NCBI GenBank assembly: GCA_001802565.1
Contig: MGYS01000016.1
Span: forward strand, 86,719 to 137,574
Direction of reading: 5' to 3'
Length of the DNA: 50,856 nt
Source: Gammaproteobacteria bacterium RIFCSPLOWO2_02_FULL_57_10
GTDB lineage: Bacteria > Pseudomonadota > Gammaproteobacteria > Pseudomonadales > Pseudohongiellaceae
The notes beneath the pieces were generated by a model. That model worked only from the letters and a program-made list of their open reading frames with translations, was not told the DNA's origin and made no database searches. The position numbers and the translations under genes are program-made. This document shows, piece after piece, positions 25,655 through 38,083 of the stretch. Numbering within the stretch: position 1 is the stretch's first letter; each line of letters opens with the position of its first letter.

Positions 25655-26443
25655 TCAGCGAAACCAGCCCATCTGTTCTGTGGTGACCAGCAATATTCCA
25701 TCGCGACTCCAGATCTTTCCCTGAGCACCGCACGTGGAGGACTGCGCCCGCGTGCCGACGGCTTCGATCAACACATAGTCGTCACCGAGTCTGCTGACTT
25801 CTTCTTCCGTGCCGTGGAAATAGATCGACATCGTGATCGTCGAGTACGGTGACGGCTCGGCGCGCATGCTCCAGGTCTTCGGTGGATAGTTGTCAGAGAG
25901 ATATGCGAGTTGCAGGTAATCCAGCGAGCGACCCGATATTTCCCGTACCCAGGCAACACTGCGAGTGTCAGGTTGATTGAAAGGCGTGCTACCTATCGCT
26001 GGGCGCACGAGACTGCGCTCGCCAAAGGTGCCAGGTGGATGCATTTTCGGCAGTGAATCCGGATGCGGTACGTCCGGCATGGCCACATCGACGAAAGAGA
26101 AACTCTCACGGCGTCGCGCGATCACGGCAGTGGCCGTCGCTGCAGGCCCCGGCACACCATCGACCTCCACTTCCGCGTGCCACACCGATAACGAGCGGCT
26201 GCTGTTGACGATGCGGGTTCTCACTGTCAGTGCGCTGCCCGGAGTGATCGCATGCAGAAAGTGGATGGTCAGCGCAGAGATGTTGCCCGCATCGACAGCG
26301 TCCTTCAGTATCGCGTTCAGCATGAGCGTCGCCGTCCAACCACCGTACATGCCCGACGTTGCCACGCGACGATGATCGGCATGACTACGCCATGCATTCG
26401 GGCCATGCGCGTGCAACTGGATTGACTCGTCGAATTCATTCAT
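25655..26443 (-). CDS. Acyl-CoA thioesterase, double-hotdog (TesB-like) family
   Basis: MYGGWTATLMLNAI in the N-terminal half plus a second hotdog-like half. The assignment rests on overall resemblance. Confidence 0.6.
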   Translation of the reverse strand: MNEFDESIQLHAHGPNAWRSHADHRRVATSGMYGGWTATLMLNAILKDAVDAGNISALTIHFLHAITPGSALTVRTRIVNSSRSLSVWHAEVEVDGVPGPAATATAVIARRRESFSFVDVAMPDVPHPDSLPKMHPPGTFGERSLVRPAIGSTPFNQPDTRSVAWVREISGRSLDYLQLAYLSDNYPPKTWSMRAEPSPYSTITMSIYFHGTEEEVSRLGDDYVLIEAVGTRAQSSTCGAQGKIWSRDGILLVTTEQMGWFR

Positions 26444-26467: not shown

Positions 26468-26887
26468 TCACTGCTCGTCGCCGACCTTGCCGCGCAACAC
26501 CTTGATCTTTCCATGCAGAACTTTTCCCTCCACGCGCTTTCTCTGCGAGGACTTCGTCGGTTTCGTCGGCGTGCGCGTTTTCTTCACGACGCTCGCGTCG
26601 CGAATCATTTCCTGCAGACGTCGCAGTGCGGCCTCGCGATTCTGTTCCTGCGTACGATGCTGCTGCGCCTTGATCACGATCACGCCTTCGCGCGTGATGC
26701 GACTGTCGCGCAGATTGAGCAGGCTGTGTTTGTAGAAGTAGGGCAGGGACGAGGCCTTGATATCGAAGCGCAAGTGAATCGCGGACGACACCTTGTTGAC
26801 GTTCTGTCCGCCCGCGCCCTGGGCACGGATCGCGGTCAGTTCGATCTCGTCGTCGGGGATGCCAACGTTCAGGGAAATCTCAAGCAT
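26468..26887 (-). CDS. arfB: Alternative ribosome-rescue factor ArfB (peptidyl-tRNA hydrolase, YaeJ)
   Basis: GGQ motif in RAQGAGGQNVNKVSSAIHLRF, plus the basic C-terminal tail KKTRTPTKPTKSSQRKR. Confidence 0.9.
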   Translation of the reverse strand: MLEISLNVGIPDDEIELTAIRAQGAGGQNVNKVSSAIHLRFDIKASSLPYFYKHSLLNLRDSRITREGVIVIKAQQHRTQEQNREAALRRLQEMIRDASVVKKTRTPTKPTKSSQRKRVEGKVLHGKIKVLRGKVGDEQ

Positions 26888-26943: not shown

Positions 26944-27177
26944 TCATAGCTTGTCATTGGCTTTCAGATCAACCAGAAGGGCTTCATAGCTGATGGTGGG
27001 TTCTGACACTCGCATCTCAAAGGCCGCAAGGTCCTCCTGATCTTCCGCAAGAGAGGCCCGCACCGCATCGTTCACAAGCTCGGACACGGAGCGGTTCGCA
27101 TGAGCCGCCTTCAGACGCAGCGCTGCATGCAGGGCGGAATCGAAATAGATGGTGGAGCGCTTGGGCTGATCATTCAT
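26944..27177 (-). CDS. Ribbon-helix-helix (CopG/RelB-like) antitoxin-type protein, no adjacent toxin
   Basis: STIYFDSALHAALRLKAAHANRSVSELVNDAV is a typical RHH strand-helix-helix. Only 56 nt separate it from arfB downstream. Confidence 0.6.
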   Translation of the reverse strand: MNDQPKRSTIYFDSALHAALRLKAAHANRSVSELVNDAVRASLAEDQEDLAAFEMRVSEPTISYEALLVDLKANDKL

Positions 27178-27251: not shown

Positions 27252-28598
27252 TCAATCCCTCATCAGCGTGATCTGCGTATCCTCATCCAGCCTTGTCCAC
27301 GTGCCGGTAATCTGCCCGCCACTCAGAGCCCCCACAAAGCGCGCATCGATCGCGTTGATCTGAAAGCGCAGGCTCTGCCCCTCCAGTGCAACGCCGCTCA
27401 CAGGCACATTGATCATGCCGACACTGGCGATATCGAGGAACGTGTCAAAGCCGCCATCGGCGGTGGCCGCGAATCGGAACACCAGATCCGCACCCGTGAC
27501 ATTGCCGCGCCAGGTGCCCTGCAGATAGCGCTGTGCATCGGCGGTGAGATCGGGATTCGGGACATAGGGCCCGCGCGTCAATGCGATAGGAGACTGCTGA
27601 CCCGCCTGCTGCCACTGCGCGTCGATGCTGTCCTGCGCCAGCGTGCCGGTGAGCGAGCCACCAATGACGGCGGCGGAGAGGGTCAACTGATCGCCATCCA
27701 ACTGGATCTGCGTGATGGGAATATTGCTGGCACCCTGATCCTGGCTGTCGAAGAAAGCGGCGAAGCGGCCGCTTGCCGTGCGCTCGAAACGAAAGACCAG
27801 ATTGAGTGGGCCGATCTGGCCGTGCCACGGACCTTCAAGACGCGCGAACTGTTCCTCGGACAACGGCAGTCCCGCCGCCTCGTACTCTCCGCGTGTCAGA
27901 TTCAGCTCCAGTGATCTGCTGGCCTGCACCCAGTCGCCATTCAGCGCGTCACCATCCAGAGTGCCGATGAACTCCATGCGCGCGCGATTGACGGACAGGG
28001 TCAGTTCGTCATTGATCATGCCGACGCTGTCCACCGGAATGCCCATGGTGCCCTCGTCCGGGCTGTCCATGAACGCCGCGAATTCACCCTGAGCATCGCG
28101 CTCGAAGCGGAACACCACAGTGACTTGCAGATCGTCATCGGGATTGGGTCGCAGCGTGCCTACCCAGGAGCCGAGAATGCGCTCCATGTCGGCCGCTGTC
28201 AGAACAGGCTCGACGTAAGGGCGCAGAGTGAGAGGAACGGTGGAGCCGGGTTGTGTCCAGCTTCCCGTCACCACACCATCGGTGAGGCGACCGGCGAAGG
28301 AACCACTCAGCGCGGCAACACCAAGACTCAGGCCGCCACCTTCAAAGCTCACGTCTTCCACCGGCAGATTCTGCAGGGCGGGTTGCTCTGGAGAGCTGAC
28401 GGTAGCCGTCAGCTGACCATCGGCATCGCGCACGAAATTGAAATGCATCTCGATGCCCTGGCCGGGTGCGATCTCCAGCATGCCTTCCCAGATGCCGGTC
28501 AGGTCGTCCTGAGCGAGAACGGATTGAGTCGTCAACGCCATCATTGCCAGCAACAGCCTTGTGAAAAACCGGCCCATCATTCCTTGCACTATTCCCAT
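27252..28598 (-). CDS. Secreted protein built from four tandem ~100-aa repeats, unknown function
   Basis: Signal peptide (LLLAMMALTTQSVLAQD). Four units each begin G-x-W-x-G, contain F-R/N-F...G-x-F/L-x-A...P-V/I...F-x-G-x-L...G-x-W and end L-T/M-R. Confidence 0.6.
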   Translation of the reverse strand: MGIVQGMMGRFFTRLLLAMMALTTQSVLAQDDLTGIWEGMLEIAPGQGIEMHFNFVRDADGQLTATVSSPEQPALQNLPVEDVSFEGGGLSLGVAALSGSFAGRLTDGVVTGSWTQPGSTVPLTLRPYVEPVLTAADMERILGSWVGTLRPNPDDDLQVTVVFRFERDAQGEFAAFMDSPDEGTMGIPVDSVGMINDELTLSVNRARMEFIGTLDGDALNGDWVQASRSLELNLTRGEYEAAGLPLSEEQFARLEGPWHGQIGPLNLVFRFERTASGRFAAFFDSQDQGASNIPITQIQLDGDQLTLSAAVIGGSLTGTLAQDSIDAQWQQAGQQSPIALTRGPYVPNPDLTADAQRYLQGTWRGNVTGADLVFRFAATADGGFDTFLDIASVGMINVPVSGVALEGQSLRFQINAIDARFVGALSGGQITGTWTRLDEDTQITLMRD

Positions 28599-29047: not shown

Positions 29048-29596
29048 CTAACTCAAGGTGCATTTACGAGATAGCCATTTCCTGATGAGAATCAACCTGT
29101 AAATGGAAAAAAGTAAAGCGCATAGAAAATATGCGATTCCGGGAATCATTATTGTTGGAAAACCAATGTCGCTACCCCACGGCGCAGTAGTGAGCAATAT
29201 GAACAAGTTCAAGCTGAAAGCAAGGTAGTAGAGATAAACGATAACTGACTCAGAGACAGCGAGTTCGGACCTTGAAAGATCGACCGTTGTCGCTGAAGAC
29301 CTAAGCGCAAGCGTCACGAAAAGTATGCTGAAAATGGTTATTCCGATAATGGTAATAAGCACGTTGATATACAAGAATGAAGAGGCCCCCCTTGTAATTC
29401 TAGAGACAGCCCCGAACCAAAGTGAGAAGGGAAGTGCTGCAAAGCATACAACTGTAGAGAGCCTGTAAACTTTAACCAAGAACTCAATTTTTCCTTTCGA
29501 TAGCTCGTGTGCAGTAACATGCTTTGGATTCTCAGAGAAGTAACTACCGGATACCGCATTTAGATAGAAACTATCATCATACTTGTATATAGCCAT
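29048..29596 (-). CDS. AT-rich four-TM membrane protein, candidate immunity/self-protection protein
   Basis: Last gene of the peptide operon. Four hydrophobic helices, AAGGA RBS and markedly AT-rich codon usage. No family recognised. Confidence 0.5.
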   Translation of the reverse strand: MAIYKYDDSFYLNAVSGSYFSENPKHVTAHELSKGKIEFLVKVYRLSTVVCFAALPFSLWFGAVSRITRGASSFLYINVLITIIGITIFSILFVTLALRSSATTVDLSRSELAVSESVIVYLYYLAFSLNLFILLTTAPWGSDIGFPTIMIPGIAYFLCALLFSIYRLILIRKWLSRKCTLS

Positions 29597-29630
29597 GACA
29601 TATCCTTTTGAAAGGCATCGTAGAGTTTAC

Positions 29631-29681
29631 AAAGCACAATTGTTAAATCCATTTTATTCAGAAAAATAACAATTGTGCTTT
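29631..29681 (-). promoter_or_regulatory. Perfect 15-bp stem-loop between the precursor peptide gene and the downstream membrane-protein gene
   Basis: aaagcacaattgtta - 21-nt loop - taacaattgtgcttt. No T-tract follows on the coding (minus) strand. Confidence 0.4.
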
Positions 29682-29722
29682 CAGTACCGGGCCGGGCCGG
29701 TTTTTAAGCTACTTTAAGCTTT

Positions 29723-29977
29723 TTAAGAAGAAGTCTCTTCAGATGAGACTGATCCACCACCCATTGATGCAAGATTCATGATTACAGATCCACCTACTCC
29801 GAGAACTGCGGCACTAACAGCAAGCGATGCTGTTACTACTGCTCCTGCAGCGAGGAATGGAAGTGTGGCCGCTGTAGCTGCACCAATGAATGCGTACGTG
29901 GCTCCAGCGGCGTAGGTGTACGCATCAAACTCCCCACCAGAAACAATACCTATCTCTTCAACCGTAAGTAATCGCAT
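29723..29977 (-). CDS. Double-glycine-leader precursor peptide (class II microcin/bacteriocin-like), 84 aa
   Basis: The leader MRLLTVEEIGIVSGG fits the LSxxELxxIxGG consensus at positions -12, -8, -7, -4, -2 and -1. AAGGAG RBS lies 6 nt upstream. The gene sits immediately downstream of the C39-ABC exporter gene. The 69-aa core is Ala/Gly/Ser-rich and hydrophobic. Confidence 0.75.
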   Translation of the reverse strand: MRLLTVEEIGIVSGGEFDAYTYAAGATYAFIGAATAATLPFLAAGAVVTASLAVSAAVLGVGGSVIMNLASMGGGSVSSEETSS

Positions 29978-30037
29978 GACAAAACTCCTTGTAGAAAATT
30001 GATTTCCAGATAAAGCCATGACAGAAGGCTCAATTAA

Positions 30038-30065
30038 ATACTAGTACAGAAATACAATAATTCAA
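30038..30065 (-). promoter_or_regulatory. Candidate sigma-70 promoter for the precursor peptide gene
   Basis: On the minus strand, TTGAAT - 16 nt - TAGTAT lies in the AT-rich 106-nt spacer between the ABC gene and the peptide gene. Pattern match only. Confidence 0.25.
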
Positions 30066-30083
30066 TAAATTGGCATGAATCCG

Positions 30084-32201
30084 TTACGGCACATCACCGA
30101 TGTGTTCGCGAAGGATACAGTTATCAAGAATCAGCACTCGATTAGCAATCGCCAATGGAGCCGTTCGATGCGTGATGAAGATTACGGTAATGTTCAATGC
30201 ACGAATCTCCTCCAGAATCGCACCCTCCGTCTCAAGGTCAAGATTCGCGGTGGCTTCATCCAGGAACAGGATGCGCGCGTTCTTGTAGAACGCTCGTGCG
30301 AGCAGAATGCGTTGCCCTTGCCCCGATGACATGATCGATCCCATATCGCCGATCAGGCTGTTGTAGCCCATGGGCAATGACTGGATGAACTGATCTATCC
30401 GCGCCATATGCCCGGCTCTTTGCAATCTTGCGTGATCCACTTCGTCATCGAACAGCGTGATGTTGTCCATGATCGTGCCGGACAGCAGTTGATCAGTTTG
30501 CAGAATGCCCGCACAGGCATCACGATACTGACGCACACCAAATTGCTGCACGTCGGTGCCATCCACTTTCAGTGAGCCGGTGTCTGGCTGCAGCAGTCCT
30601 GCCATCAATTTCATCAAGGTCGATTTGCCGGAGCCAGACGGGCCAACAATGGCGATGATTTCACCCGCAGCAACGTTGAGGTTGAGACCACTCAGAACGG
30701 GACAGGCGCTGCCAGGGTAGGCATAGGACACATTTTCCAGTGTCAGTGCGCCCTGTATCGGCACGCGTAATCTGGGCAGGTGGAGACTGTCGAACTCTTT
30801 CTCGGTACAGGTAATGTCGGAGACACGTTCGAGCTGTAGCCGCACCAACCGGATCTGCACGATCTTCTCGATGAAGGAGCGGATAGATGAGGAGAAATTG
30901 CCTTTGAGTGCGACGAACGCGGTAAGAAAGCCCAGCGTGATTTGCCCTTCAAGCACCAGTGTTGCGGCGAGATAGATGATCAACACATTCTCCAGCGCGA
31001 ACAGCAGGCCGTAAACGGCATCGATGTTGATGGTGAAACGAGTCAGTACCACATTGGTATTGATCTGCTCGGCATAATAGTTGCGCCAGAGCATGACGCG
31101 GGGCAGCTCGCGACAGTAGAACTTGATGATCTCGATGGCGCGCATGTTCTCCATGAGATTGGAGCTGGTCTTGGCGTCGGACACGATCTTCTGTTCCTGT
31201 AATGCCTGGATCTTCGGAATCAATGCAATCTTGAGCGTAGTGGCCAGCGTCACGAACAACAGGACCACCGAGGCGAGTGTGACATTGAAGTAGAACATCA
31301 CGACCAACGTCATCAAGGCAAACAGCCCGTCGAGAACGACGGTGATCAGGTCTTCGGTGATGATGCGGCGAATCTCGCGAATGGAACCGAAGCGCGACAC
31401 CAGATCGCCGACATGACGTTTCTCGAAGAATTCCACCGGAAGGGTGATGAGATGATTGAAGACATTGCTCACCATCTGGAAGCCGAGCTGATTGGAGAAA
31501 TAAAGTTGAACCTGTGCCCGTGCGTAAGTCATTGCGACACTCGTCAGTCCGAGCATGAAGAAACCGATGGCCAGCACGGTGAGGAAGTCACGATCCTGTT
31601 TCGCCAGCCCTTCGTCGATGACAAGTTGCATGTAGAACGCGCCGCCGATCGAAGCCAGTTGCAGCAGCAGCGATAACAGGAACAACTGTGTGACAGCGGT
31701 GTAGAAGCCGCGATAGCGCTCGAACAACTCCATGAGCTTCGAGCGCAGCAACTGGGTCTGCGGTTTGAACGCTGCGCCCGGTGTGAACTCCACTGCGATG
31801 CCCGTGAAGTGGCGGCTCGTCTCTGCCATGCTGTACTGTCGCTCACCCGCCGCCGGATCATGAATCACGATGGACGTCGTCGTGACTTTCTTCAATACGA
31901 CAAAGTGAGTCATGTCCCAGTGCAGCACCGCAGGCAGTTGAAGGTTCTGCAGGTCCTCCATCTCCAGTTTCAACGGACGGGTATTCAGGTCCAGTGCGCT
32001 GGCGATGCTGAGAATCTCGGCGAGATTGGCCCCGCGAGAAGAGATCGGATATTCACGCCGCAGAGTGTTCAGATCGATACGGCGCCCGAAATGGCTTGCC
32101 ACCATGGCGACGCAGGCAAGGCCGCATTCGGCGCGTTCTGCCTGCAGAATGATCGGCAGGGAATGCCTGGAGCAAAACAGCGTGTCGACAAGAGCCCGCA
32201 T
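30084..32201 (-). CDS. Peptidase C39 domain-containing bacteriocin ABC exporter (CvaB/HlyB type)
   Basis: N-terminal C39 with Cys (QAERAECGLACVAM), His (HWDMTHFVVL) and IHDPA. Six-TM region. Walker A GPSGSGKST, signature SSGQGQR, Walker B ILFLDEATANLD. Confidence 0.9.
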   Translation of the reverse strand: MRALVDTLFCSRHSLPIILQAERAECGLACVAMVASHFGRRIDLNTLRREYPISSRGANLAEILSIASALDLNTRPLKLEMEDLQNLQLPAVLHWDMTHFVVLKKVTTTSIVIHDPAAGERQYSMAETSRHFTGIAVEFTPGAAFKPQTQLLRSKLMELFERYRGFYTAVTQLFLLSLLLQLASIGGAFYMQLVIDEGLAKQDRDFLTVLAIGFFMLGLTSVAMTYARAQVQLYFSNQLGFQMVSNVFNHLITLPVEFFEKRHVGDLVSRFGSIREIRRIITEDLITVVLDGLFALMTLVVMFYFNVTLASVVLLFVTLATTLKIALIPKIQALQEQKIVSDAKTSSNLMENMRAIEIIKFYCRELPRVMLWRNYYAEQINTNVVLTRFTINIDAVYGLLFALENVLIIYLAATLVLEGQITLGFLTAFVALKGNFSSSIRSFIEKIVQIRLVRLQLERVSDITCTEKEFDSLHLPRLRVPIQGALTLENVSYAYPGSACPVLSGLNLNVAAGEIIAIVGPSGSGKSTLMKLMAGLLQPDTGSLKVDGTDVQQFGVRQYRDACAGILQTDQLLSGTIMDNITLFDDEVDHARLQRAGHMARIDQFIQSLPMGYNSLIGDMGSIMSSGQGQRILLARAFYKNARILFLDEATANLDLETEGAILEEIRALNITVIFITHRTAPLAIANRVLILDNCILREHIGDVP

Positions 32202-33436
32202 TACAGTTTTCTGCCCAGGCTTGTCAGTGGTGAAAACAATCGTTCGAGGAGATTACTGCTACCCGTGATGATTTCGGCCGAGAACTGCATGCCTGATCTG
32301 AACTGGGCGTCGTTCGCATGATGTTGGTCGATCCGCGCGCGCACGAGATAGGCAGGTTCGTTCAAATCCAGAGGGATCAAGAATTCTCGCGGGTCCATGA
32401 CAGACGACGAGACATTGACGACCGTTGCCGCAAAAGTCCCGTGCGTCTGGTAGGGGAAGGCATCGTAGGAGAGCATGATCTCGTGTCCCACCTGCACTTT
32501 TCCCACAGCGCGTGAGGGCAGATACAGTCGCGCTTCCAGCACGGCATCGTGTGGCACCAGTGTTGTGAAAGGAATCCGGGGATCGACGGTATCTCCCGGG
32601 CGCAAGAGTAGATTGCTGAGTGTGCCGTCCGCTGGAGCGAGAAGAGTGAACAGCCCTTGTGAACCAAGCTCGTCCTGCTGCGCGAGCAATTGAGAGAGTG
32701 TGCTCTGCATCGAGAGCCATTCCTCCTGTACTGCGAAGGGCTGCAGGGCAAGCTGTTGTCTCGCCTCTTCCAGAGCGAGCTTGCGTCCCTCGATATTCAG
32801 ACGTGTCGTCGTGCTCGTCTGCTGAAGAGCGTACCAGGTTGATTCGACCTGGTTGTGCTCGCGATTGGAGATGGACTTGCGCGCCAGCAGAGTGGCGCTG
32901 CTCCTGTACTCCTGTTCTGCGAGAGCGAGTCGCTTCAGGACCACATCATGCTCTTCCTGCAACAACGCCAACTCTTCGCTCAATCCTGCGATACGAGCAC
33001 GTGATTGTTCTTTGGCGATCAGTGCGCGCTTCTCAAGAACAGCGATTCTCTCCTGCAGTTGCGCGATCTGTTTTCCGGTGTGCTCGAGGAGGACACTGGT
33101 GGACCGCCGCCCGGCCTCGTCCGAGCGCCCAGCAGCGATCGTTGCCAGGATATCGCCCTGACGTACACGTTGTCCTTCGATACCACGAATGTCCAACAGG
33201 ACGCCGGAACGTTCGCTGTAAACCTTGATCTCTCCTGCAGAGGGGATCAGATGTCCCCTCACCATCTCGGTTTCCTTTATCTGCACCAGAGCAGCGAAGG
33301 AGACGAATGAGAGGAAAATCAGTGTGATCCCGATCACCATCGCACGGACGGTCAGAGGTTGATAGAAAAGCGCATCACCGTATTGCGATGCTGTGCTTGC
33401 GAGCAAGGCTTCCCGACGGAACAGTTCTGAAGTCAT
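32201..33436 (-). CDS. HlyD/CvaA-family periplasmic adaptor (membrane fusion protein)
   Basis: FRREAL N-terminus, TM helix VIGITLIFLSFVSFAALV, long coiled coil and C-terminal beta domain. AGGAG RBS. TAATG overlap with the ABC start. The upstream extension in the track reads through a REP and was rejected. Confidence 0.85.
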   Translation of the reverse strand: MTSELFRREALLASTASQYGDALFYQPLTVRAMVIGITLIFLSFVSFAALVQIKETEMVRGHLIPSAGEIKVYSERSGVLLDIRGIEGQRVRQGDILATIAAGRSDEAGRRSTSVLLEHTGKQIAQLQERIAVLEKRALIAKEQSRARIAGLSEELALLQEEHDVVLKRLALAEQEYRSSATLLARKSISNREHNQVESTWYALQQTSTTTRLNIEGRKLALEEARQQLALQPFAVQEEWLSMQSTLSQLLAQQDELGSQGLFTLLAPADGTLSNLLLRPGDTVDPRIPFTTLVPHDAVLEARLYLPSRAVGKVQVGHEIMLSYDAFPYQTHGTFAATVVNVSSSVMDPREFLIPLDLNEPAYLVRARIDQHHANDAQFRSGMQFSAEIITGSSNLLERLFSPLTSLGRKL

Positions 33437-33449
33437 TTGCAGGCTCCTG

Positions 33450-34784
33450 TCACATTCGGTTATCGCGAACAGGGCTCGCTCCCACAGAAGGGCAGCGGTG
33501 CTCGAAGTAGTTTGGCAGTGAGCTGAGGTATTTCCACTGGGCAGGGCTTCGCGAGATCCATTTCTCCGCAAGGTTGACAAGCTGTTGGGTGATGCGTGAT
33601 GTGGCGTCGTCCAGAGACTCGCCAGTCAACAGTTCCGTGTCGATGACAGCTTCCATCTCGATGTGGCTCTGACCATCCCTTTCGAATGTGATGAAAGGGA
33701 GGATGGGCGCCTTTCCCATGATCGCCAGTTGCGCCGGGCCCTTGACGAAGCGAGCAGCGTGGCCAAAGAAGGTGACAGCTACTGTGCCGCCAAACTCCTC
33801 TTTAAGATCGAACATGATGGCTAGCGTGTGATCTCCCCTGCGCAGAGCGCTGACGATACTCACAGGGTTGTACTGGCCGTGCCTCAATACTCTGTGCCCG
33901 GGTCGATTACCAATGACGTAGTCTTTCTCCCTTGCGCTGTCCTGCTCGCGTCGAAGAGAAATGGCTGCACGTTTTGGACCTGCAAGCGCTGCAAGGCATT
34001 TGAATGCACCGAGAAAATCTCCCATGTGAATGGTCGCCAGAACGCGGGAGCCTGGTTGAGCTGCGATGTATGCGATGTAATCCTTTCTTTCCGGCCAGAC
34101 GAATGCATCGAGGTAGCGTTGGCCGTCGGCGAATCCGTGCAGATGAACATGACGTTTCGCAAAGTTGTATTCGCAGTGAAAGCGACATTCTCTCAACATT
34201 GCCTGAACCACATGTTCTGGCTCGTGCAACAGCATACCGAGAATTCGCGTGTGAACGTCGGTCGCGAGGCGTTCCGTTGGCAGTGACTCTTCCAGCGCGA
34301 ACCGCAGACGGAGAAGAGCGCGCAAGAGAATTTTTCTGAGCGCAATGGATTGTCCGGATACCACGCACCGCTTGGACAGGTTCTGCACTATCAGTAGAAT
34401 GCGCTCAGAGAGCGTAAAAGGAATCGAAATCCCATCCTTGGAATCGCCTTCGAAACTCTGAATGACTGCATCGTGAAGCTGCAACGCGTAGCGAAGCAGC
34501 GATTCGCATTCCTGATATACGTAATCCGTCTTCACGAGTTCGACCCGAAGGCTAAGCTCAGTCTGCAGCACCCGCACTCCGGGATCGAGCGCAGGCAATT
34601 TCTGCCGCAATGCGCGCGTCACCGAAATCATGCGCAGACTCAGCAGGTACTCCATCGCAGAGCAGCAATACTCCATACTTCGGCGACATTCGTCATACTG
34701 CAGGCAACGCCACGCGTTCAGCAGGGTTTGCCGAACGGAGGGCAGCCGGATTGTGGACAACTGTGCTGGCAGAGTGTCTTCCAT
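33450..34784 (-). CDS. LpxL/lysophospholipid acyltransferase (LPLAT, PF03279-like) family protein with ~200-aa N-terminal extension
   Basis: The C-terminal half has ATIHMGDF (HxG[ND][WF]-type catalytic region), LRRGDHTLAIMFD and FFGHAARFVKGPAQLAIMGKAPILPF. The N-terminal helical region has no TM anchor that I can see. The last ~12 codons are encoded by a REP unit. Confidence 0.6.
   Translation of the reverse strand: MEDTLPAQLSTIRLPSVRQTLLNAWRCLQYDECRRSMEYCCSAMEYLLSLRMISVTRALRQKLPALDPGVRVLQTELSLRVELVKTDYVYQECESLLRYALQLHDAVIQSFEGDSKDGISIPFTLSERILLIVQNLSKRCVVSGQSIALRKILLRALLRLRFALEESLPTERLATDVHTRILGMLLHEPEHVVQAMLRECRFHCEYNFAKRHVHLHGFADGQRYLDAFVWPERKDYIAYIAAQPGSRVLATIHMGDFLGAFKCLAALAGPKRAAISLRREQDSAREKDYVIGNRPGHRVLRHGQYNPVSIVSALRRGDHTLAIMFDLKEEFGGTVAVTFFGHAARFVKGPAQLAIMGKAPILPFITFERDGQSHIEMEAVIDTELLTGESLDDATSRITQQLVNLAEKWISRSPAQWKYLSSLPNYFEHRCPSVGASPVRDNRM
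33462..33486. repeat. Single REP unit inside the 3' end of the acyltransferase gene
   Basis: atcgcgaacagggctcgctcccaca. It is translated as ...PSVGASPVRD... in the acyltransferase frame. Confidence 0.75.
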
Positions 34785-34793
34785 GACGTTCTC

Positions 34794-35102
34794 TCAGATC
34801 GTGGTCGGTTCCTTTGTGATGCAGGCCCGGTGAATCAGCGTGATGAGATCGCCAACCGTCTCCAGTTCCGCCATCAGTTGTTCGTCCGCCACTATTGCAA
34901 AGCGCGCCTCAAGAGCGAAGATGATTTCAACCAGTTTCAAGGAGTCCATTCCAAGTGAGCCGAGGCTTGTCGAATGTGCGAGTTCGATGTTGCAACGGCC
35001 TGAGTTCCGCAAGAGCTCCGTTACGACCAACTCTATGTTCTGTAATATGACTCCATGTGACCCCTCTTCCTGCGACGTCATAGCCTTCTCATGACAGTTC
35101 AT
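34794..35102 (-). CDS. Acyl carrier protein
   Basis: Phosphopantetheine attachment motif LGMDSLKLVE. The ATG overlaps the ligase stop as ATGA at 35099-35102. Confidence 0.8.
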   Translation of the reverse strand: MNCHEKAMTSQEEGSHGVILQNIELVVTELLRNSGRCNIELAHSTSLGSLGMDSLKLVEIIFALEARFAIVADEQLMAELETVGDLITLIHRACITKEPTTI

Positions 35103-36757
35103 GCAACCACTCCTTGTGCTTGTGTACGGACACTGAATTTCACAGAGCTTTCCAGGTAACGCTCCCTGCAACGCTCTCTCTGAAGTTTGCCGCTGGTTGT
35201 CAGGGGTAGTGCTCTTCTGGGGACGATTTGAACATCATCAGGCGCGATACCAAATTCATCGCACACCAGTGTGCTGGCAGCCGTCGGTATGGTGGTCATC
35301 ATCGCACCGCTGACGGTACTGGCGTGCTCCAGCAACAGGATCAGCGCATCGCTTTCATCATTCGGGACAGTGAACGCTGCGCAACGCGTGATGCCTTGAG
35401 TGTTGAGAACTCTCTCCACTCTTTCCTCGATATCTTCGGCATGAAATGTACGGCCGCGTCGCTTGAACACGTTCTTGAGTCGTCCCACGAAATGGAGCGT
35501 GCCCTGCCTGATGAATCCGAGATCGCCGGTCCGCATATAACCCCGCACGCCATCAAGGACTTGATCGAACGTCGTTCGTGTAGCGGCTGCATCATTGAAA
35601 TATCCCGGCGAGAGGGATGAAGACCTGAGCCACACCTCCCCAGTCGTTCCATCCGGAAGAGGACGCTGTTTCAGCGGGTCCACGATGACAATACTGTCTT
35701 GTTCCATGATGCGGCCCACTCCCGGATAATCGGTCTGGGAGGAGGGCGTGACACCATACTGACCACATACAAAGAGCGTTGACTCAGCCATGCCGTAGCA
35801 AGGGAAGAACGCTTCCTTGTCGAATGACGCGCTTGCGAACCGGCGCGCAAATCGTGCCAGAACGGAGGGAACGATTCTTTCGGAACCGCAATAGGCAAGA
35901 CGCCATGTGCTCAGATCCAACGGCTCCTCATCCTGTCGGAAAGGTTCACCATTTTCCGCGCACAGTGCATAGGCGAAAGTGGGCGCGCCACTGATCGTGG
36001 CTTTGCATCTGGAGATGGCGCGCAACCAGCGTAGTGGGTCACCAATGAAATCCGCAGGAGAAAGAAAATAGTTCGGCACGCCGCAGTAAAGAGACTGGAT
36101 GACATGACCGATCAGTCCCATATCGTGATGGAACGGCAGCCAGGATACGCAGACATGTTCCGGGGAACAGCCAAAACGTTGCCTGATGCTTTCGGAATTG
36201 TGCAACACATTCGCGTGCGTCACGATGACACCGCGCGGATGTGAGGTGGAGCCGGACGTGTATTGAATGAAGGCAATGTCGTGTGGTTGCACATCCGGGC
36301 GTTGCCACGATGCAACATCGACAGGCCAGTCAGGCACATCGGTGCAAAGGACTTGCACACGCCCTGCATGCAACAGCGCTTGCGGAATCAGCCTTTGCGT
36401 CGAGGAAAGCGTGAGGACAGTAGTCGCGCCACTTGTCGCAATCGTCCTTAAAACACTTGTCCAATCTTTCCCACGAGGCTTTGTGAGTGGCATGGGCCAT
36501 GCTCCGGCGAGAATGGTGCCTAGAAAAGCGACAATGAAGTCAGGGCCGTGAGGATAGAGCAGCGCGATGGGTGATTTCTGCAATCTGCGCTGCTGCAGGA
36601 CTGCGGCAATAGTCACCGCTTTGTCGTACAGTGCTGCATAGGTCAATTCGTGACTGATCGAGACTTCCTTGTTCAGAAAGGCATACAACCTTTGGTGCGG
36701 AGATTGATTGACCTGCATTTCCACAATGGATAGCAGATCCTGCTTGGTGGCTGACAT
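35099..36757 (-). CDS. Fatty acyl-AMP ligase-type adenylating enzyme (AMP-dependent synthetase/ligase)
   Basis: FIQYTSGSTSHPRGVIVTHANVLHN (AMP-binding core), YMRTGDLGF and TTSGKLQR. Followed directly by an ACP rather than using CoA, which is the FAAL arrangement. Confidence 0.8.
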   Translation of the reverse strand: MSATKQDLLSIVEMQVNQSPHQRLYAFLNKEVSISHELTYAALYDKAVTIAAVLQQRRLQKSPIALLYPHGPDFIVAFLGTILAGAWPMPLTKPRGKDWTSVLRTIATSGATTVLTLSSTQRLIPQALLHAGRVQVLCTDVPDWPVDVASWQRPDVQPHDIAFIQYTSGSTSHPRGVIVTHANVLHNSESIRQRFGCSPEHVCVSWLPFHHDMGLIGHVIQSLYCGVPNYFLSPADFIGDPLRWLRAISRCKATISGAPTFAYALCAENGEPFRQDEEPLDLSTWRLAYCGSERIVPSVLARFARRFASASFDKEAFFPCYGMAESTLFVCGQYGVTPSSQTDYPGVGRIMEQDSIVIVDPLKQRPLPDGTTGEVWLRSSSLSPGYFNDAAATRTTFDQVLDGVRGYMRTGDLGFIRQGTLHFVGRLKNVFKRRGRTFHAEDIEERVERVLNTQGITRCAAFTVPNDESDALILLLEHASTVSGAMMTTIPTAASTLVCDEFGIAPDDVQIVPRRALPLTTSGKLQRERCRERYLESSVKFSVRTQAQGVVA

Positions 36758-36886
36758 GGCGACACATCCTTGTTTCTGTTCCTGATGCCTTCCAAGTTAG
36801 ACCAACAATGTGAAATCGACAAGTCGATGGCGGGATTTCAGTTGAGAGCTATACTGGGATCGTGCAGAACGCTGGAGTGAGCGGAA

Positions 36887-37861
36887 ATGATCACGGAAGA
36901 AATTGGAAGAACGGATTCCTGCGCGCAGAACCATAGCGAATTTTCAGCAATGGTGGTGGGAAAAATTCTTTGGGAGTACGAAAAGGCGCCTTGTCGCATA
37001 CAAAGTCTCTACGAACTTGCCAAGGAGAAAATGTGGAATGCCAACAGTGATGTGCCGTGGAATGATTTCGGTCGTGACAGATCCTTTCCTTCCTCGCACG
37101 AAAGCGAACCACTGACAGGATTTGCGGAGTATGAGGCGCTTCCGGATGATGAAAGGCGCCGCATCAGTTGGTGGCGGCACGCGCTGGAGATCAGCGAGAT
37201 TCTCCATGGCGAGCAGGGTGCGTTGCTGGTCGCCTCGCAACTGGTCTCGTGCCTGCCCACTGTGGAATCCAAGTTGTTTGCGAGCTCACAGGTCTTTGAT
37301 GAAGCGCGGCATGTAGAATTCTTTTCGCGCTATTTGCGCGAAGTGGTTGGCGAAATTCATCCGCCGAGCGAGGAGTTGAAGCGGCTCATTCAATCGATGG
37401 TAGACGAACCGCGCTGGGACATGAAGTTCATCGCCTGTCAGATTCTGATCGAGAGTCTGGCGATGGCGAAATTCCAGGAGATTCGTCAGTCAACACAGGT
37501 GCCGGTGCTCGCCTTTGCGATTGATTACATCGCGGCTGATGAAGCACGGCACGTGAAATTCGGCACGGAGTTTCTCAAGGATCATCTCGCCAGTCTGAGC
37601 GCTCCCGAACTCGCGGAGCGCAGCGATTTCGTGCTCGATAATGTGCTGCGCCTGGCGAATTCATTGAATATCACCACGCGTATCGCGGAATCGTACGACT
37701 GGGATGTAGCGGCTCTGCGTCATCATCTGCGTCAGTATCGTGTACGCCATCCCGAGATCAATCGCAATCGCTTTCGCCAATTGCTCATCAATCTGAAGGC
37801 AGTGGGTTTGCTGACCGAGCGGACGCACATGCGGATGATGTCTATGGAGGTGATGCGGTAA
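36887..37861 (+). CDS. Ferritin-like diiron-carboxylate protein (oxygenase/desaturase-like)
   Basis: Ligand pattern E...ExxH...E...ExxH: ILHGEQGA, FDEARHVEF, ILIESLAM and AADEARHVKF. Divergent from the ligase operon. The start is uncertain. Confidence 0.6.
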   Translation: MITEEIGRTDSCAQNHSEFSAMVVGKILWEYEKAPCRIQSLYELAKEKMWNANSDVPWNDFGRDRSFPSSHESEPLTGFAEYEALPDDERRRISWWRHALEISEILHGEQGALLVASQLVSCLPTVESKLFASSQVFDEARHVEFFSRYLREVVGEIHPPSEELKRLIQSMVDEPRWDMKFIACQILIESLAMAKFQEIRQSTQVPVLAFAIDYIAADEARHVKFGTEFLKDHLASLSAPELAERSDFVLDNVLRLANSLNITTRIAESYDWDVAALRHHLRQYRVRHPEINRNRFRQLLINLKAVGLLTERTHMRMMSMEVMR

Positions 37862-37870
37862 GCGAGGGGT

Positions 37871-38083
37871 CTAGTCGATGAACTTCTTGATGACTATATC
37901 CGCACCAATTTCACCAGGAGAGGGTAGAGCAAGCTCGTCGGCGTGGACGCCATAGGCATCCAAGCCGTTGAGCAACTCGGCCTCGGAAAATGGCAGCTTG
38001 ACTCGGCGAGGAACCTTTTCGGCAGCATCAATCAAAATCTCGCCGCCTCCGACTTCAAGATGGATTTCGCGCGCTTCTTGAGC
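37871..38083 (-). pseudogene. Remnant of an AbrB/MazE-type antitoxin gene (no start codon, N-terminal domain missing)
   Basis: A 70-codon open frame bounded upstream by TAG: AQEAREIHLEVGGGEILIDAAEKVPRRVKLPFSEAELLNGLDAYGVHADELALPSPGEIG... It resembles the C-terminal two-thirds of MazE/PrlF-like antitoxins. No toxin gene follows. Confidence 0.4.

Follow-up and report, generated by a model that had tools for sequence, protein, structure and literature searches.

A PatA-fold acyltransferase linked to a C39-ABC exporter and serine-ended double-glycine peptides in Pseudohongiellaceae and other Gammaproteobacteria

The groundwater metagenome-assembled genome (MAG) Gammaproteobacteria bacterium RIFCSPLOWO2_02_FULL_57_10 contains, within the stretch of 50,856 nucleotides that was analysed here (the window), a locus in which the fatty acyl-AMP ligase (FAAL), acyl carrier protein (ACP) and acyltransferase (AT) genes adjoin those of a peptide exporter of the C39-ABC type (peptidase-containing ABC transporter, PCAT), and it is this combination that concerns us here. 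In the public record seven of the protein genes are entered as 'hypothetical protein' (A3H44_13235 to A3H44_13265), and the gene of the precursor peptide is without annotation, the tags jumping from A3H44_13235 (a protein with four predicted transmembrane segments, the 4-TM protein) to A3H44_13240 (the ABC exporter). The features of the locus are as follows, in window positions:

36887..37861, plus strand: gene of a ferritin-like dimetal-carboxylate oxidase, diverging from the operon (AurF Pfam family PF11583)
36758..36886, no strand: divergent intergenic region of 129 nt between the oxidase and FAAL genes (read from the sequence)
35099..36757, minus strand: FAAL (Pfam AMP-binding and NCBIfam)
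34794..35102, minus strand: ACP, 102 aa (PP-binding and GMDSL motif)
33450..34784, minus strand: AT, 444 aa (PF03279, Lip_A_acyltrans, and PatA/LpxL fold)
32201..33436, minus strand: HlyD-type periplasmic adaptor (HlyD_3, type_I_hlyD)
30084..32201, minus strand: C39-ABC exporter (PCAT) with C39 peptidase, permease and ATPase (Pfam)
29978..30083, no strand: A+T-rich spacer of 106 nt between the exporter and precursor genes (sequence)
29723..29977, minus strand: double-glycine precursor peptide, 84 aa (leader and ribosome-binding site)
29631..29681, minus strand: perfect 15-bp hairpin in the interval between the peptide and 4-TM genes (inverted repeat and folding)
29048..29596, minus strand: 4-TM protein, 182 aa, candidate immunity protein (hydropathy and position)

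The FAAL and ACP genes overlap in ATGA, with AAGGAG 7 nt 5' of the ACP start, gaps of 9 and 13 nt separate ACP from AT and AT from HlyD, and the HlyD and ABC genes overlap in TAATG. A preliminary description of this DNA, made from its letters, had given these junction lengths together with domain calls for the products, all of which proved correct in Pfam and NCBIfam scans and on reading the sequence, and the spacer, the double-glycine leader gene, the hairpin, the 4-TM gene and the diverging ferritin-like gene are likewise all as it described them. The G+C content is 42.5% over 29-30 kb, where the peptide and 4-TM genes lie, as against 52-62% elsewhere. Promoter and terminator scans over 28.8-38.1 kb gave matches no commoner than in shuffled sequences, the 129-nt region between the oxidase and FAAL genes holds no sigma-70-like match above chance, and an Rfam scan of the window gave no match.

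Relatives of the AT were gathered from genomes, metagenomes and assemblies, which yielded 60 loci (labelled L001 and so forth) that stem mostly from Pseudohongiellaceae and other uncultured Gammaproteobacteria and lie in several unrelated genomic neighbourhoods, with identities to the window AT from 66% down to about 24% if three near-identical contigs are set apart. When only those loci are counted that have enough contig sequence for the neighbour in question, an HlyD gene is found directly downstream of the AT gene in 50 of 52 loci and a C39-ABC gene near it in 45 of 46, and the same neighbourhood holds an ACP gene in 44 of 55, a FAAL gene in 37 of 46 and a diverging oxidase gene in 33 of 38. 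The exceptions to the AT-HlyD order have the ACP gene between the two or the exporter gene directly after the AT gene, and in nearly every locus the AT gene closely adjoins those of HlyD and PCAT or overlaps them. FAAL is absent in four loci that retain the link between AT and exporter (L002, L018, L028 and L059), and a group with a short form of the AT (L022, L050, L052 and L062) is without FAAL, ACP and oxidase alike, the AT being still tied to the exporter in L022 and L062. A tRNA-synthetase-like gene of L059 was considered as a loader of the ACP and rejected, since by sequence it is epmA-like and the preceding gene efp-like. Since HlyD and C39-ABC are thus nearly constant while the accessory genes vary, we can conclude that the invariant core is AT-HlyD-PCAT, and that FAAL, ACP and oxidase are each dispensable in some relatives. 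The preliminary description had allowed that the FAAL-ACP-AT triad might be conserved elsewhere without exporter genes, its association with them being peculiar to this DNA; the counts for HlyD and C39-ABC show the opposite, the AT family being fused in an operon to the exporter in essentially every locus.

The extent of the unit is apparent from two loci that share flanks. In L064 (891-9168) a six-gene cassette has an enoyl-CoA hydratase gene on one side and two peptide genes on the other, and in L054 (9835-10168; contig JBBDNQ010000013 of MAG GCA_040877505.1) the two peptide genes come straight after this hydratase gene with no cassette in between, the site reading hydratase gene, two peptide genes and hydrolase gene. 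The cassette of that MAG is found on another contig, JBBDNQ010000006 (L015), which implies that cargo can be encoded in trans, although this is seen in one genome only. The six-gene cassette, comprising the oxidase gene and FAAL-ACP-AT-HlyD-PCAT, is present or absent as one block and occurs in different neighbourhoods, and the low-G+C peptide and 4-TM genes are variable cargo that is absent beside most cassettes; of the seven-gene island originally proposed for the window, the linkage of the genes therefore stands but the outline does not, the unit being the six-gene cassette. The enoyl-CoA hydratase gene, which adjoins the oxidase gene in many Pseudohongiella-type loci, was considered as a further member of the cluster and rejected, since it is absent from the window and many cassettes and remains in L054 without the cassette, as befits a synteny neighbour. 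Given this behaviour it seems very improbable that acylation and export are encoded by two functionally independent modules which stand in one operon by accident, with the peptide an unmodified class II microcin. Many class II microcins indeed carry no known modification, and the low-G+C pair of peptide and immunity-like genes looks separately acquired, as such a view would have it, but the order AT-HlyD-PCAT is kept in about 50 loci across deep divergence and at different chromosomal sites, and the cassette comes and goes as a block between the same flanks.

A further association is provided by a metagenomic locus (L060, 1-17509) in which a distant AT relative of 502 aa is encoded beside a C39 exporter, a FAAL, an ACP and an oxygenase of the TauD type, the latter in place of the dimetal oxidase, together with YcaO-TfuA, a 70-aa precursor with a double-glycine leader, a cytochrome P450, two methyltransferase-like genes and interspersed transposase fragments. 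By its gene content this locus is plainly a ribosomal-peptide cluster, with a member of the AT family inside it, and it may represent a pathway to a thioamidated and acylated peptide.

The exporter half of the cassette is readily classified. HlyD matches HlyD_3 (8e-11) and type_I_hlyD (1.2e-34) and has one N-terminal transmembrane segment (residues 27-55), and the ABC protein matches Peptidase_C39 (PF03412, 2.1e-34), ABC_membrane and ABC_tran, with the C39 motifs QAERAECGLAC, HFVVL and HDP in place. Judged from sequence, the export half of the window locus is thus a standard class II microcin or PCAT module, in which a C39-ABC protein and an adjoining HlyD serve a double-glycine substrate. The Gln, Cys, His and Asp motifs of the peptidase are furthermore intact in all 40 exporters checked, from which it follows that the cargo should be double-glycine peptides everywhere.

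The AT is less easily placed. Pfam matches it to Lip_A_acyltrans (PF03279, 9.8e-10), the match being limited to the C-terminal part of the protein, and neither NCBIfam nor Pfam has a specific model for it, or for the precursor peptide or the 4-TM protein. Its AlphaFold2 model (predicted local distance difference test, pLDDT, 88.7) was compared with solved structures by Foldseek and matched PatA with an E-value of 5.5e-10 over about 250-263 columns (TM-score normalised to the target 0.69-0.75) and LpxM with 8e-08, so that the designation as a lipid A-type acyltransferase made in the preliminary description is right as to family and fold, but the structure is nearer to mycobacterial PatA than to the lipid A enzyme LpxL. 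In the sequence alignment H253 falls on PatA H126 and D326 on PatA E200, both AT residues being invariant in 25 homologues; His126 and Glu200 are what we take, from structural work on PatA, to be the catalytic pair of that enzyme. With its PatA fold, the aligned and invariant H253 and D326 and a FAAL and ACP alongside, the AT looks catalytically competent as far as sequence and model can tell. While it thus shares with PatA and LpxL/LpxM the fold (target TM-score of about 0.7) and the aligned histidine and acid, it differs from them in having an N-terminal domain of about 165 residues, in having no membrane anchor (no transmembrane segment is apparent from hydropathy), in lacking the acid of the HX4(D/E) motif, and in its partners, which are a peptide exporter and not lipid or glycolipid genes, its donor being presumably the dedicated acyl-ACP. 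The extra domain consists of helices and a hairpin, gave no structural match, and is found in about one third of 123 AT relatives; at least this many were obtained at E-values up to 1e-30 when 1.84 billion cluster representatives (50% identity clusters) were searched with a profile. As a side observation, the deposited version of the AT protein has 401 aa as against the 444 aa given here.

The FAAL matches AMP-binding in Pfam (1.9e-62) and the fatty acyl-AMP ligase subfamilies of NCBIfam at 3.9e-97 to 2.4e-82, all of these under the curated cut-offs. Among solved structures the closest to it are 7r7e-g and 3kxw, whose deposited names are 'Polyketide synthase' and 'Saframycin Mx1 synthetase B'; next come the FAALs FadD23/32/28 and 3pbk, and the E-values go down to 8.7e-96. 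We assign it to the FAALs on the combination of the adenylate-forming fold, the FAAL-like similarity and the adjoining carrier protein. The latter, the ACP, has a PP-binding match (2.7e-08) and the phosphopantetheine-site motif GMDSL. The oxidase matches PF11583, the AurF family, with 52 bits against a cut-off of 29.6, and residues E109, E139xxH142, E189 and E219xxH222 are invariant in 28 homologues, a set of ligands that fits the general E/EXXH/E/EXXH site of ferritin-like proteins. The nearest solved folds to its AlphaFold2 model (pLDDT 86.6) are R2-like ligand-binding oxidase (R2lox) and aldehyde-deformylating oxygenase, with CmlI ranking 35th, and both of the former have been solved with long-chain fatty ligands, which in aldehyde-deformylating oxygenase is palmitate. 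In one relative a cytochrome P450 gene is inserted beside the oxidase gene (L017, 6081-7256).

The start of the window precursor is best set at 29977, with AAGGAG 7 nt upstream, and the same 84-aa open reading frame was picked by an independent gene caller in a contig of 97.6% identity (L067). The leader, MRLLTVEEIGIVSGG, is followed by a core of 69 aa that is hydrophobic, rich in Ala, Gly and Ser and ends in ...SSEETSS, the Ser-rich tail ...GGGSVSSEETSS having Ser as its terminal residue; the computed monoisotopic mass of the unmodified core is 6519.20 Da. When the leader is aligned with 12 others, no variation is seen at L4 and E8 and hardly any at G14. The gene is kept at 252 of 255 nt in near-identical relatives, and beyond such contigs neither it nor the 4-TM gene recurs, a phmmer search with both products having yielded no homologue among the first 66 loci, and the two are hence lineage-specific cargo. 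The 4-TM protein has four hydrophobic segments by hydropathy, no Pfam or NCBIfam match and no 90% cluster-mates in the collection searched; it is a candidate immunity protein, a role suggested by its position, and small unrelated membrane proteins likewise come after the peptides in L016, L020, L025 and L026. Between the two genes lies the hairpin, with arms at 29631-29645 and 29667-29681, and this spacer folds better than 200 of 200 shuffles (z = -3.0). A direct repeat of 14 nt, which may be due to chance, occurs at 29587-29600 (ATATAGCCATGACA) and 30010-30023 (ATAAAGCCATGACA) and takes in the 4-TM gene's start codon as well as an upstream in-frame ATG that would give a longer peptide reading frame of 98 aa.

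Both the window and a number of relatives encode peptides with a double-glycine leader immediately behind the exporter, the relatives being L009, L011, L013, L016, L017, L020, L025, L026, L064/65 and L067/68. They make up six families that resemble one another in their leaders, the cores sharing little beyond composition, and include the 84-mer of the window, peptides of 50 and 55 aa that occur together in the manner of a two-peptide bacteriocin, and types of 86-89, 72 and 59 aa. Despite this diversity all 13 peptides read from cassette loci end in Ser, save that of L026, whose last residue is Cys. Ser is likewise terminal in all 27 complete database members of four cargo families, and none of the nine other leader-matched sequences of that search ends in Ser; moreover, the residues that precede the terminal Ser vary (DDS, NRS, NGS, EES, SNS, SDS, NNS, SSS and TSS). 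The core family of L017 has close relatives without the Ser tail, and a relative of its peptide in L057 that ends in ...RNSNA follows an HlyD-PCAT pair with no AT gene directly upstream. This is a weak control, since what lies upstream is 138 nt of non-coding sequence and then the end of the contig, and since it is the sole homologous peptide of its kind. A related peptide in L058 stands beside a transporter remnant. The invariant C-terminal Ser is, on sequence grounds, the strongest new hint of a functional tie between the last residue and the AT. Two side observations belong here: downstream of the L017 peptide comes a membrane protein of 376 aa whose counterpart in L057 and L058 has a Rhomboid Pfam match, and in L022 a peptide, a 75-aa membrane protein and a 429-aa protein are encoded upstream of AT-HlyD-PCAT.

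The terminal Ser also bears on where an acyl group might be attached. Acylation could take place at the new N-terminus of the core, by an AT docked on the PCAT during or after cleavage at Gly-Gly; such a physical complex would fit the close packing of the AT gene against the HlyD and PCAT genes, and lipolanthines, goadvionins, lipoavitides and aphotorhaptins are acylated at this position after leader removal (PMC13647313). The N-termini of the cores however differ from one family to another (NPV, VPLA, EFDAY, LSMED and GATDV) while the C-terminal Ser is invariant. PatA and LpxL/LpxM are furthermore known for making esters and not amides, and N-terminal acylation of these peptides therefore seems improbable.

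The reading that we favour, and towards which we lean with modest confidence, is that the cassette is a platform for the O-acylation and export of class II bacteriocins that end in Ser, with a dedicated acyl-ACP as the acyl donor. The FAAL would adenylate a fatty acid and load it onto the dedicated ACP, where the dimetal oxidase might tailor the bound chain by hydroxylation or desaturation, and the soluble, PatA-fold AT would then move the acyl group from the ACP to the precursor in the cytoplasm. The AT would most likely attach it to the hydroxyl group of the invariant C-terminal Ser, so that an ester results. The exporter's C39 domain would cut off the leader after Gly-Gly, PCAT, HlyD and an outer-membrane channel encoded elsewhere would export the lipidated core, and the 4-TM protein would protect the producer. 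A bolder version of this, which we entertain tentatively and find a little easier to doubt than to believe, would make the AT the first enzyme of the PatA/LpxL superfamily known to act on a peptide: as an integral part of a PCAT system with swappable cargo in cis or trans, it would esterify the C-terminal Ser or Cys of double-glycine precursors with a FAAL-activated and oxidised acyl group from ACP, and the products might be termed 'lipo-microcins'.

Several points weigh against acylation of the peptides. We infer the acyl donor, the acceptor, the acylation site and the antibacterial role from sequence, and the acylation chemistry is a matter of inference throughout. In the AT motif H253-M-G-D-F-L258 the sixth position, where PatA has D131, is hydrophobic and variable, the acid of HX4(D/E) being lost and D256 (HxxD) conserved instead, and the AT has an additional N-terminal domain outside the part of the model that matches PatA and LpxM. 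PatA and LpxM, which are the characterised members of the fold that were found, are moreover named glycolipid acyltransferases and not peptide acyltransferases. About three quarters of the loci have no peptide gene within 10 kb of the cassette, and L062 adjoins genes with Kdo-transferase-type and kinase/cytidylyltransferase domains, which are read as waaA and hldE and likewise adjoin L061. The short-AT locus L022 (7984-9767) has a double-glycine leader peptide that ends in ...AYCD. Finally, a contig of sample 3300059473 carries a hydratase gene, FAAL-HlyD-PCAT and an 89-aa peptide ending in Ser, with ACP, AT and oxidase lacking from its gene calls, on which alone the locus was read, and the terminal Ser can accordingly persist without an AT; this locus is either a decayed cassette or evidence of a peptide that works without the AT.

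The same observations on the named glycolipid acyltransferases, the rarity of adjoining peptide genes, the waaA- and hldE-like neighbours of L061 and L062 and the Ser-ended peptide of sample 3300059473 would be accounted for if the AT acted on a lipid or glycolipid acceptor (lipid A/lipopolysaccharide or a membrane glycolipid) and the peptides left the cell unmodified. In that case ABC/HlyD might export the acylated lipid, or the latter might tune the envelope of the producer for secretion or self-protection. Such an acceptor is nevertheless unlikely in view of the facts that the AT is without a membrane anchor, that it is fused to a leader-cleaving exporter with intact protease motifs and not to lipid A genes, that a dedicated FAAL, ACP and oxidase are typical of the tailoring of secondary metabolites, and that a member of the family occurs inside the YcaO/TfuA peptide cluster of L060. 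The peptides are, besides, already accompanied by separate immunity-like genes.

Compared with known systems, the export half of the locus corresponds to the CvaA-CvaB export of the colicin V type, with which it shares an intact C39-ABC protein, HlyD, a Gly-Gly leader of about 15 residues, a small membrane protein encoded next and an outer-membrane channel encoded elsewhere. It departs from that system in that the window operon adds a FAAL, a dedicated ACP, a PatA-fold AT and a dimetal oxidase, and in that the exporter cassette is conserved without adjoining cargo in most genomes. The class IIb microcins MccE492, MccH47 and MccM have a Gly/Ala/Ser-rich core and a Ser-ended tail that is the attachment point of a post-translational group. 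The window peptide with its Ser-rich tail ending in Ser resembles these siderophore microcins, but the group attached to it would be a fatty acyl group from acyl-ACP. A siderophore-microcin reading of the locus itself was rejected, since Pfam and NCBIfam revealed no glycosyltransferase, esterase or siderophore-attachment genes among the eight locus proteins.

The logic of acyl-ACP-dependent acylation in the cytoplasm followed by export through an ABC protein and membrane fusion protein is that of HlyC, HlyA and HlyBD. HlyC however uses housekeeping acyl-ACP and acylates internal Lys residues, the secretion signal of HlyA is C-terminal and the C39-like domain of HlyB is inactive, whereas the window has a dedicated ACP, an N-terminal leader and intact peptidase motifs. 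No HlyC-family Pfam match was found among the locus proteins, in keeping with the contrast to HlyC drawn in the preliminary description. With the lipidated members of the ribosomally synthesised and post-translationally modified peptides (lipo-RiPPs), namely selidamides, goadvionins, lipolanthines, lipoavitides and aphotorhaptins, the system has in common a ribosomal precursor and a Gly-Gly leader junction, and in goadvionins the acyl chain is likewise carried on an ACP and passed to the peptide (PMC8784127). Those lipo-RiPPs whose acyl-transfer enzyme is known employ N-acyltransferases of the GNAT superfamily, which modify Lys or Orn side chains or the N-terminus (PMC8784127; PMC13647313), and fatty acylation of ribosomal peptides is otherwise described by a lipoprotein-pathway route (PMC8784127; PMC13647313; PMC13056109). 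The contrast with GNAT-based lipidation that had been pointed out for this locus is thus borne out by the literature consulted (PMC8784127; PMC13647313): Pfam detects no GNAT domain in any protein of the window cassette, and we find instead an enzyme of the PatA/LpxL fold with a probable O-acyl site on Ser. As to the donor side, CylA-CylB-CylC of cyanobacteria combine a FAAL and an ACP with a dimetal-carboxylate enzyme, distantly AurF-like, whose substrate is a biosynthetic intermediate derived from a fatty acid (PMC8406957). By this description they are similar to the window, whose FAAL and ACP also adjoin a distant AurF-like dimetal enzyme, but the partner in the window is an AT and exporter and not a polyketide synthase, and its oxidase is nearest to R2lox and aldehyde-deformylating oxygenase.

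Full-text literature searches found no published description of the AT-HlyD-PCAT cassette, and the AT-coupled bacteriocin exporter cassette with its Ser-ended cargo is a conserved, undescribed system, which probably makes fatty-acylated bacteriocins by means of an enzyme type not known to lipidate ribosomal peptides. If this is true, a second superfamily besides the GNATs installs fatty acyl groups on ribosomal peptides, and it does so by a different chemistry, namely formation of a C-terminal Ser ester from a dedicated and oxidatively tailored acyl-ACP, in Gram-negative bacteria. It would furthermore make defined lipopeptides accessible by a genetically encoded route and account for a family whose clusters (50% identity), at least 123 in number, bear only generic names in the records examined, and it would mean that an exporter of class II microcins can be a conserved platform for swappable cargo. 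Cultured carriers of the cassette exist, among them LSUCC0112, Aurantivibrio plasticivorans NBRC 116494 and Pseudohongiella strains such as sp. O18, and the acylation idea is therefore directly testable. The first two encode peptides in cis, with computed masses of the unmodified cores of 3554.93 and 4019.14 Da in LSUCC0112 and 4986.52 Da in A. plasticivorans NBRC 116494.

Beyond the cassette some features of the flanks may be mentioned. On the oxidase side a 54-aa reading frame without a family match (37871-38035) lies between the oxidase gene and argG; in L067 and L068, of 97.6% identity, a 131-aa gene replaces this argG flank, with a HigB_toxin Pfam match also present in L068, and the borders of the cassette consequently vary even among very close relatives. 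After the cassettes of L003, L004 and L015 stands a 170-aa gene that is acetyltransferase-like by eye and absent from the window. On the 4-TM side the island is adjoined by a 448-aa protein (27252-28598) that is hydrophobic over a stretch at its N-terminus, contains internal repeats and has no Pfam match; a similar protein is encoded near the L001 cassette, and L067 has an equally long gene in this position. Next to it a 77-aa protein (26944-27177) appears antitoxin-like; its RH3-domain match is weak and falls short of the Pfam cut-off. The homologue of this protein in L001 is followed by a reading frame that is RelE/ParE-like by eye. After the 77-aa gene comes a 139-aa reading frame (26468-26887) with a GGQ motif that resembles the ribosome-rescue factor ArfB, and a protein of 262 aa that has acyl-CoA thioesterase domains is encoded at a distance of 2.6 kb from the island (25655-26443).

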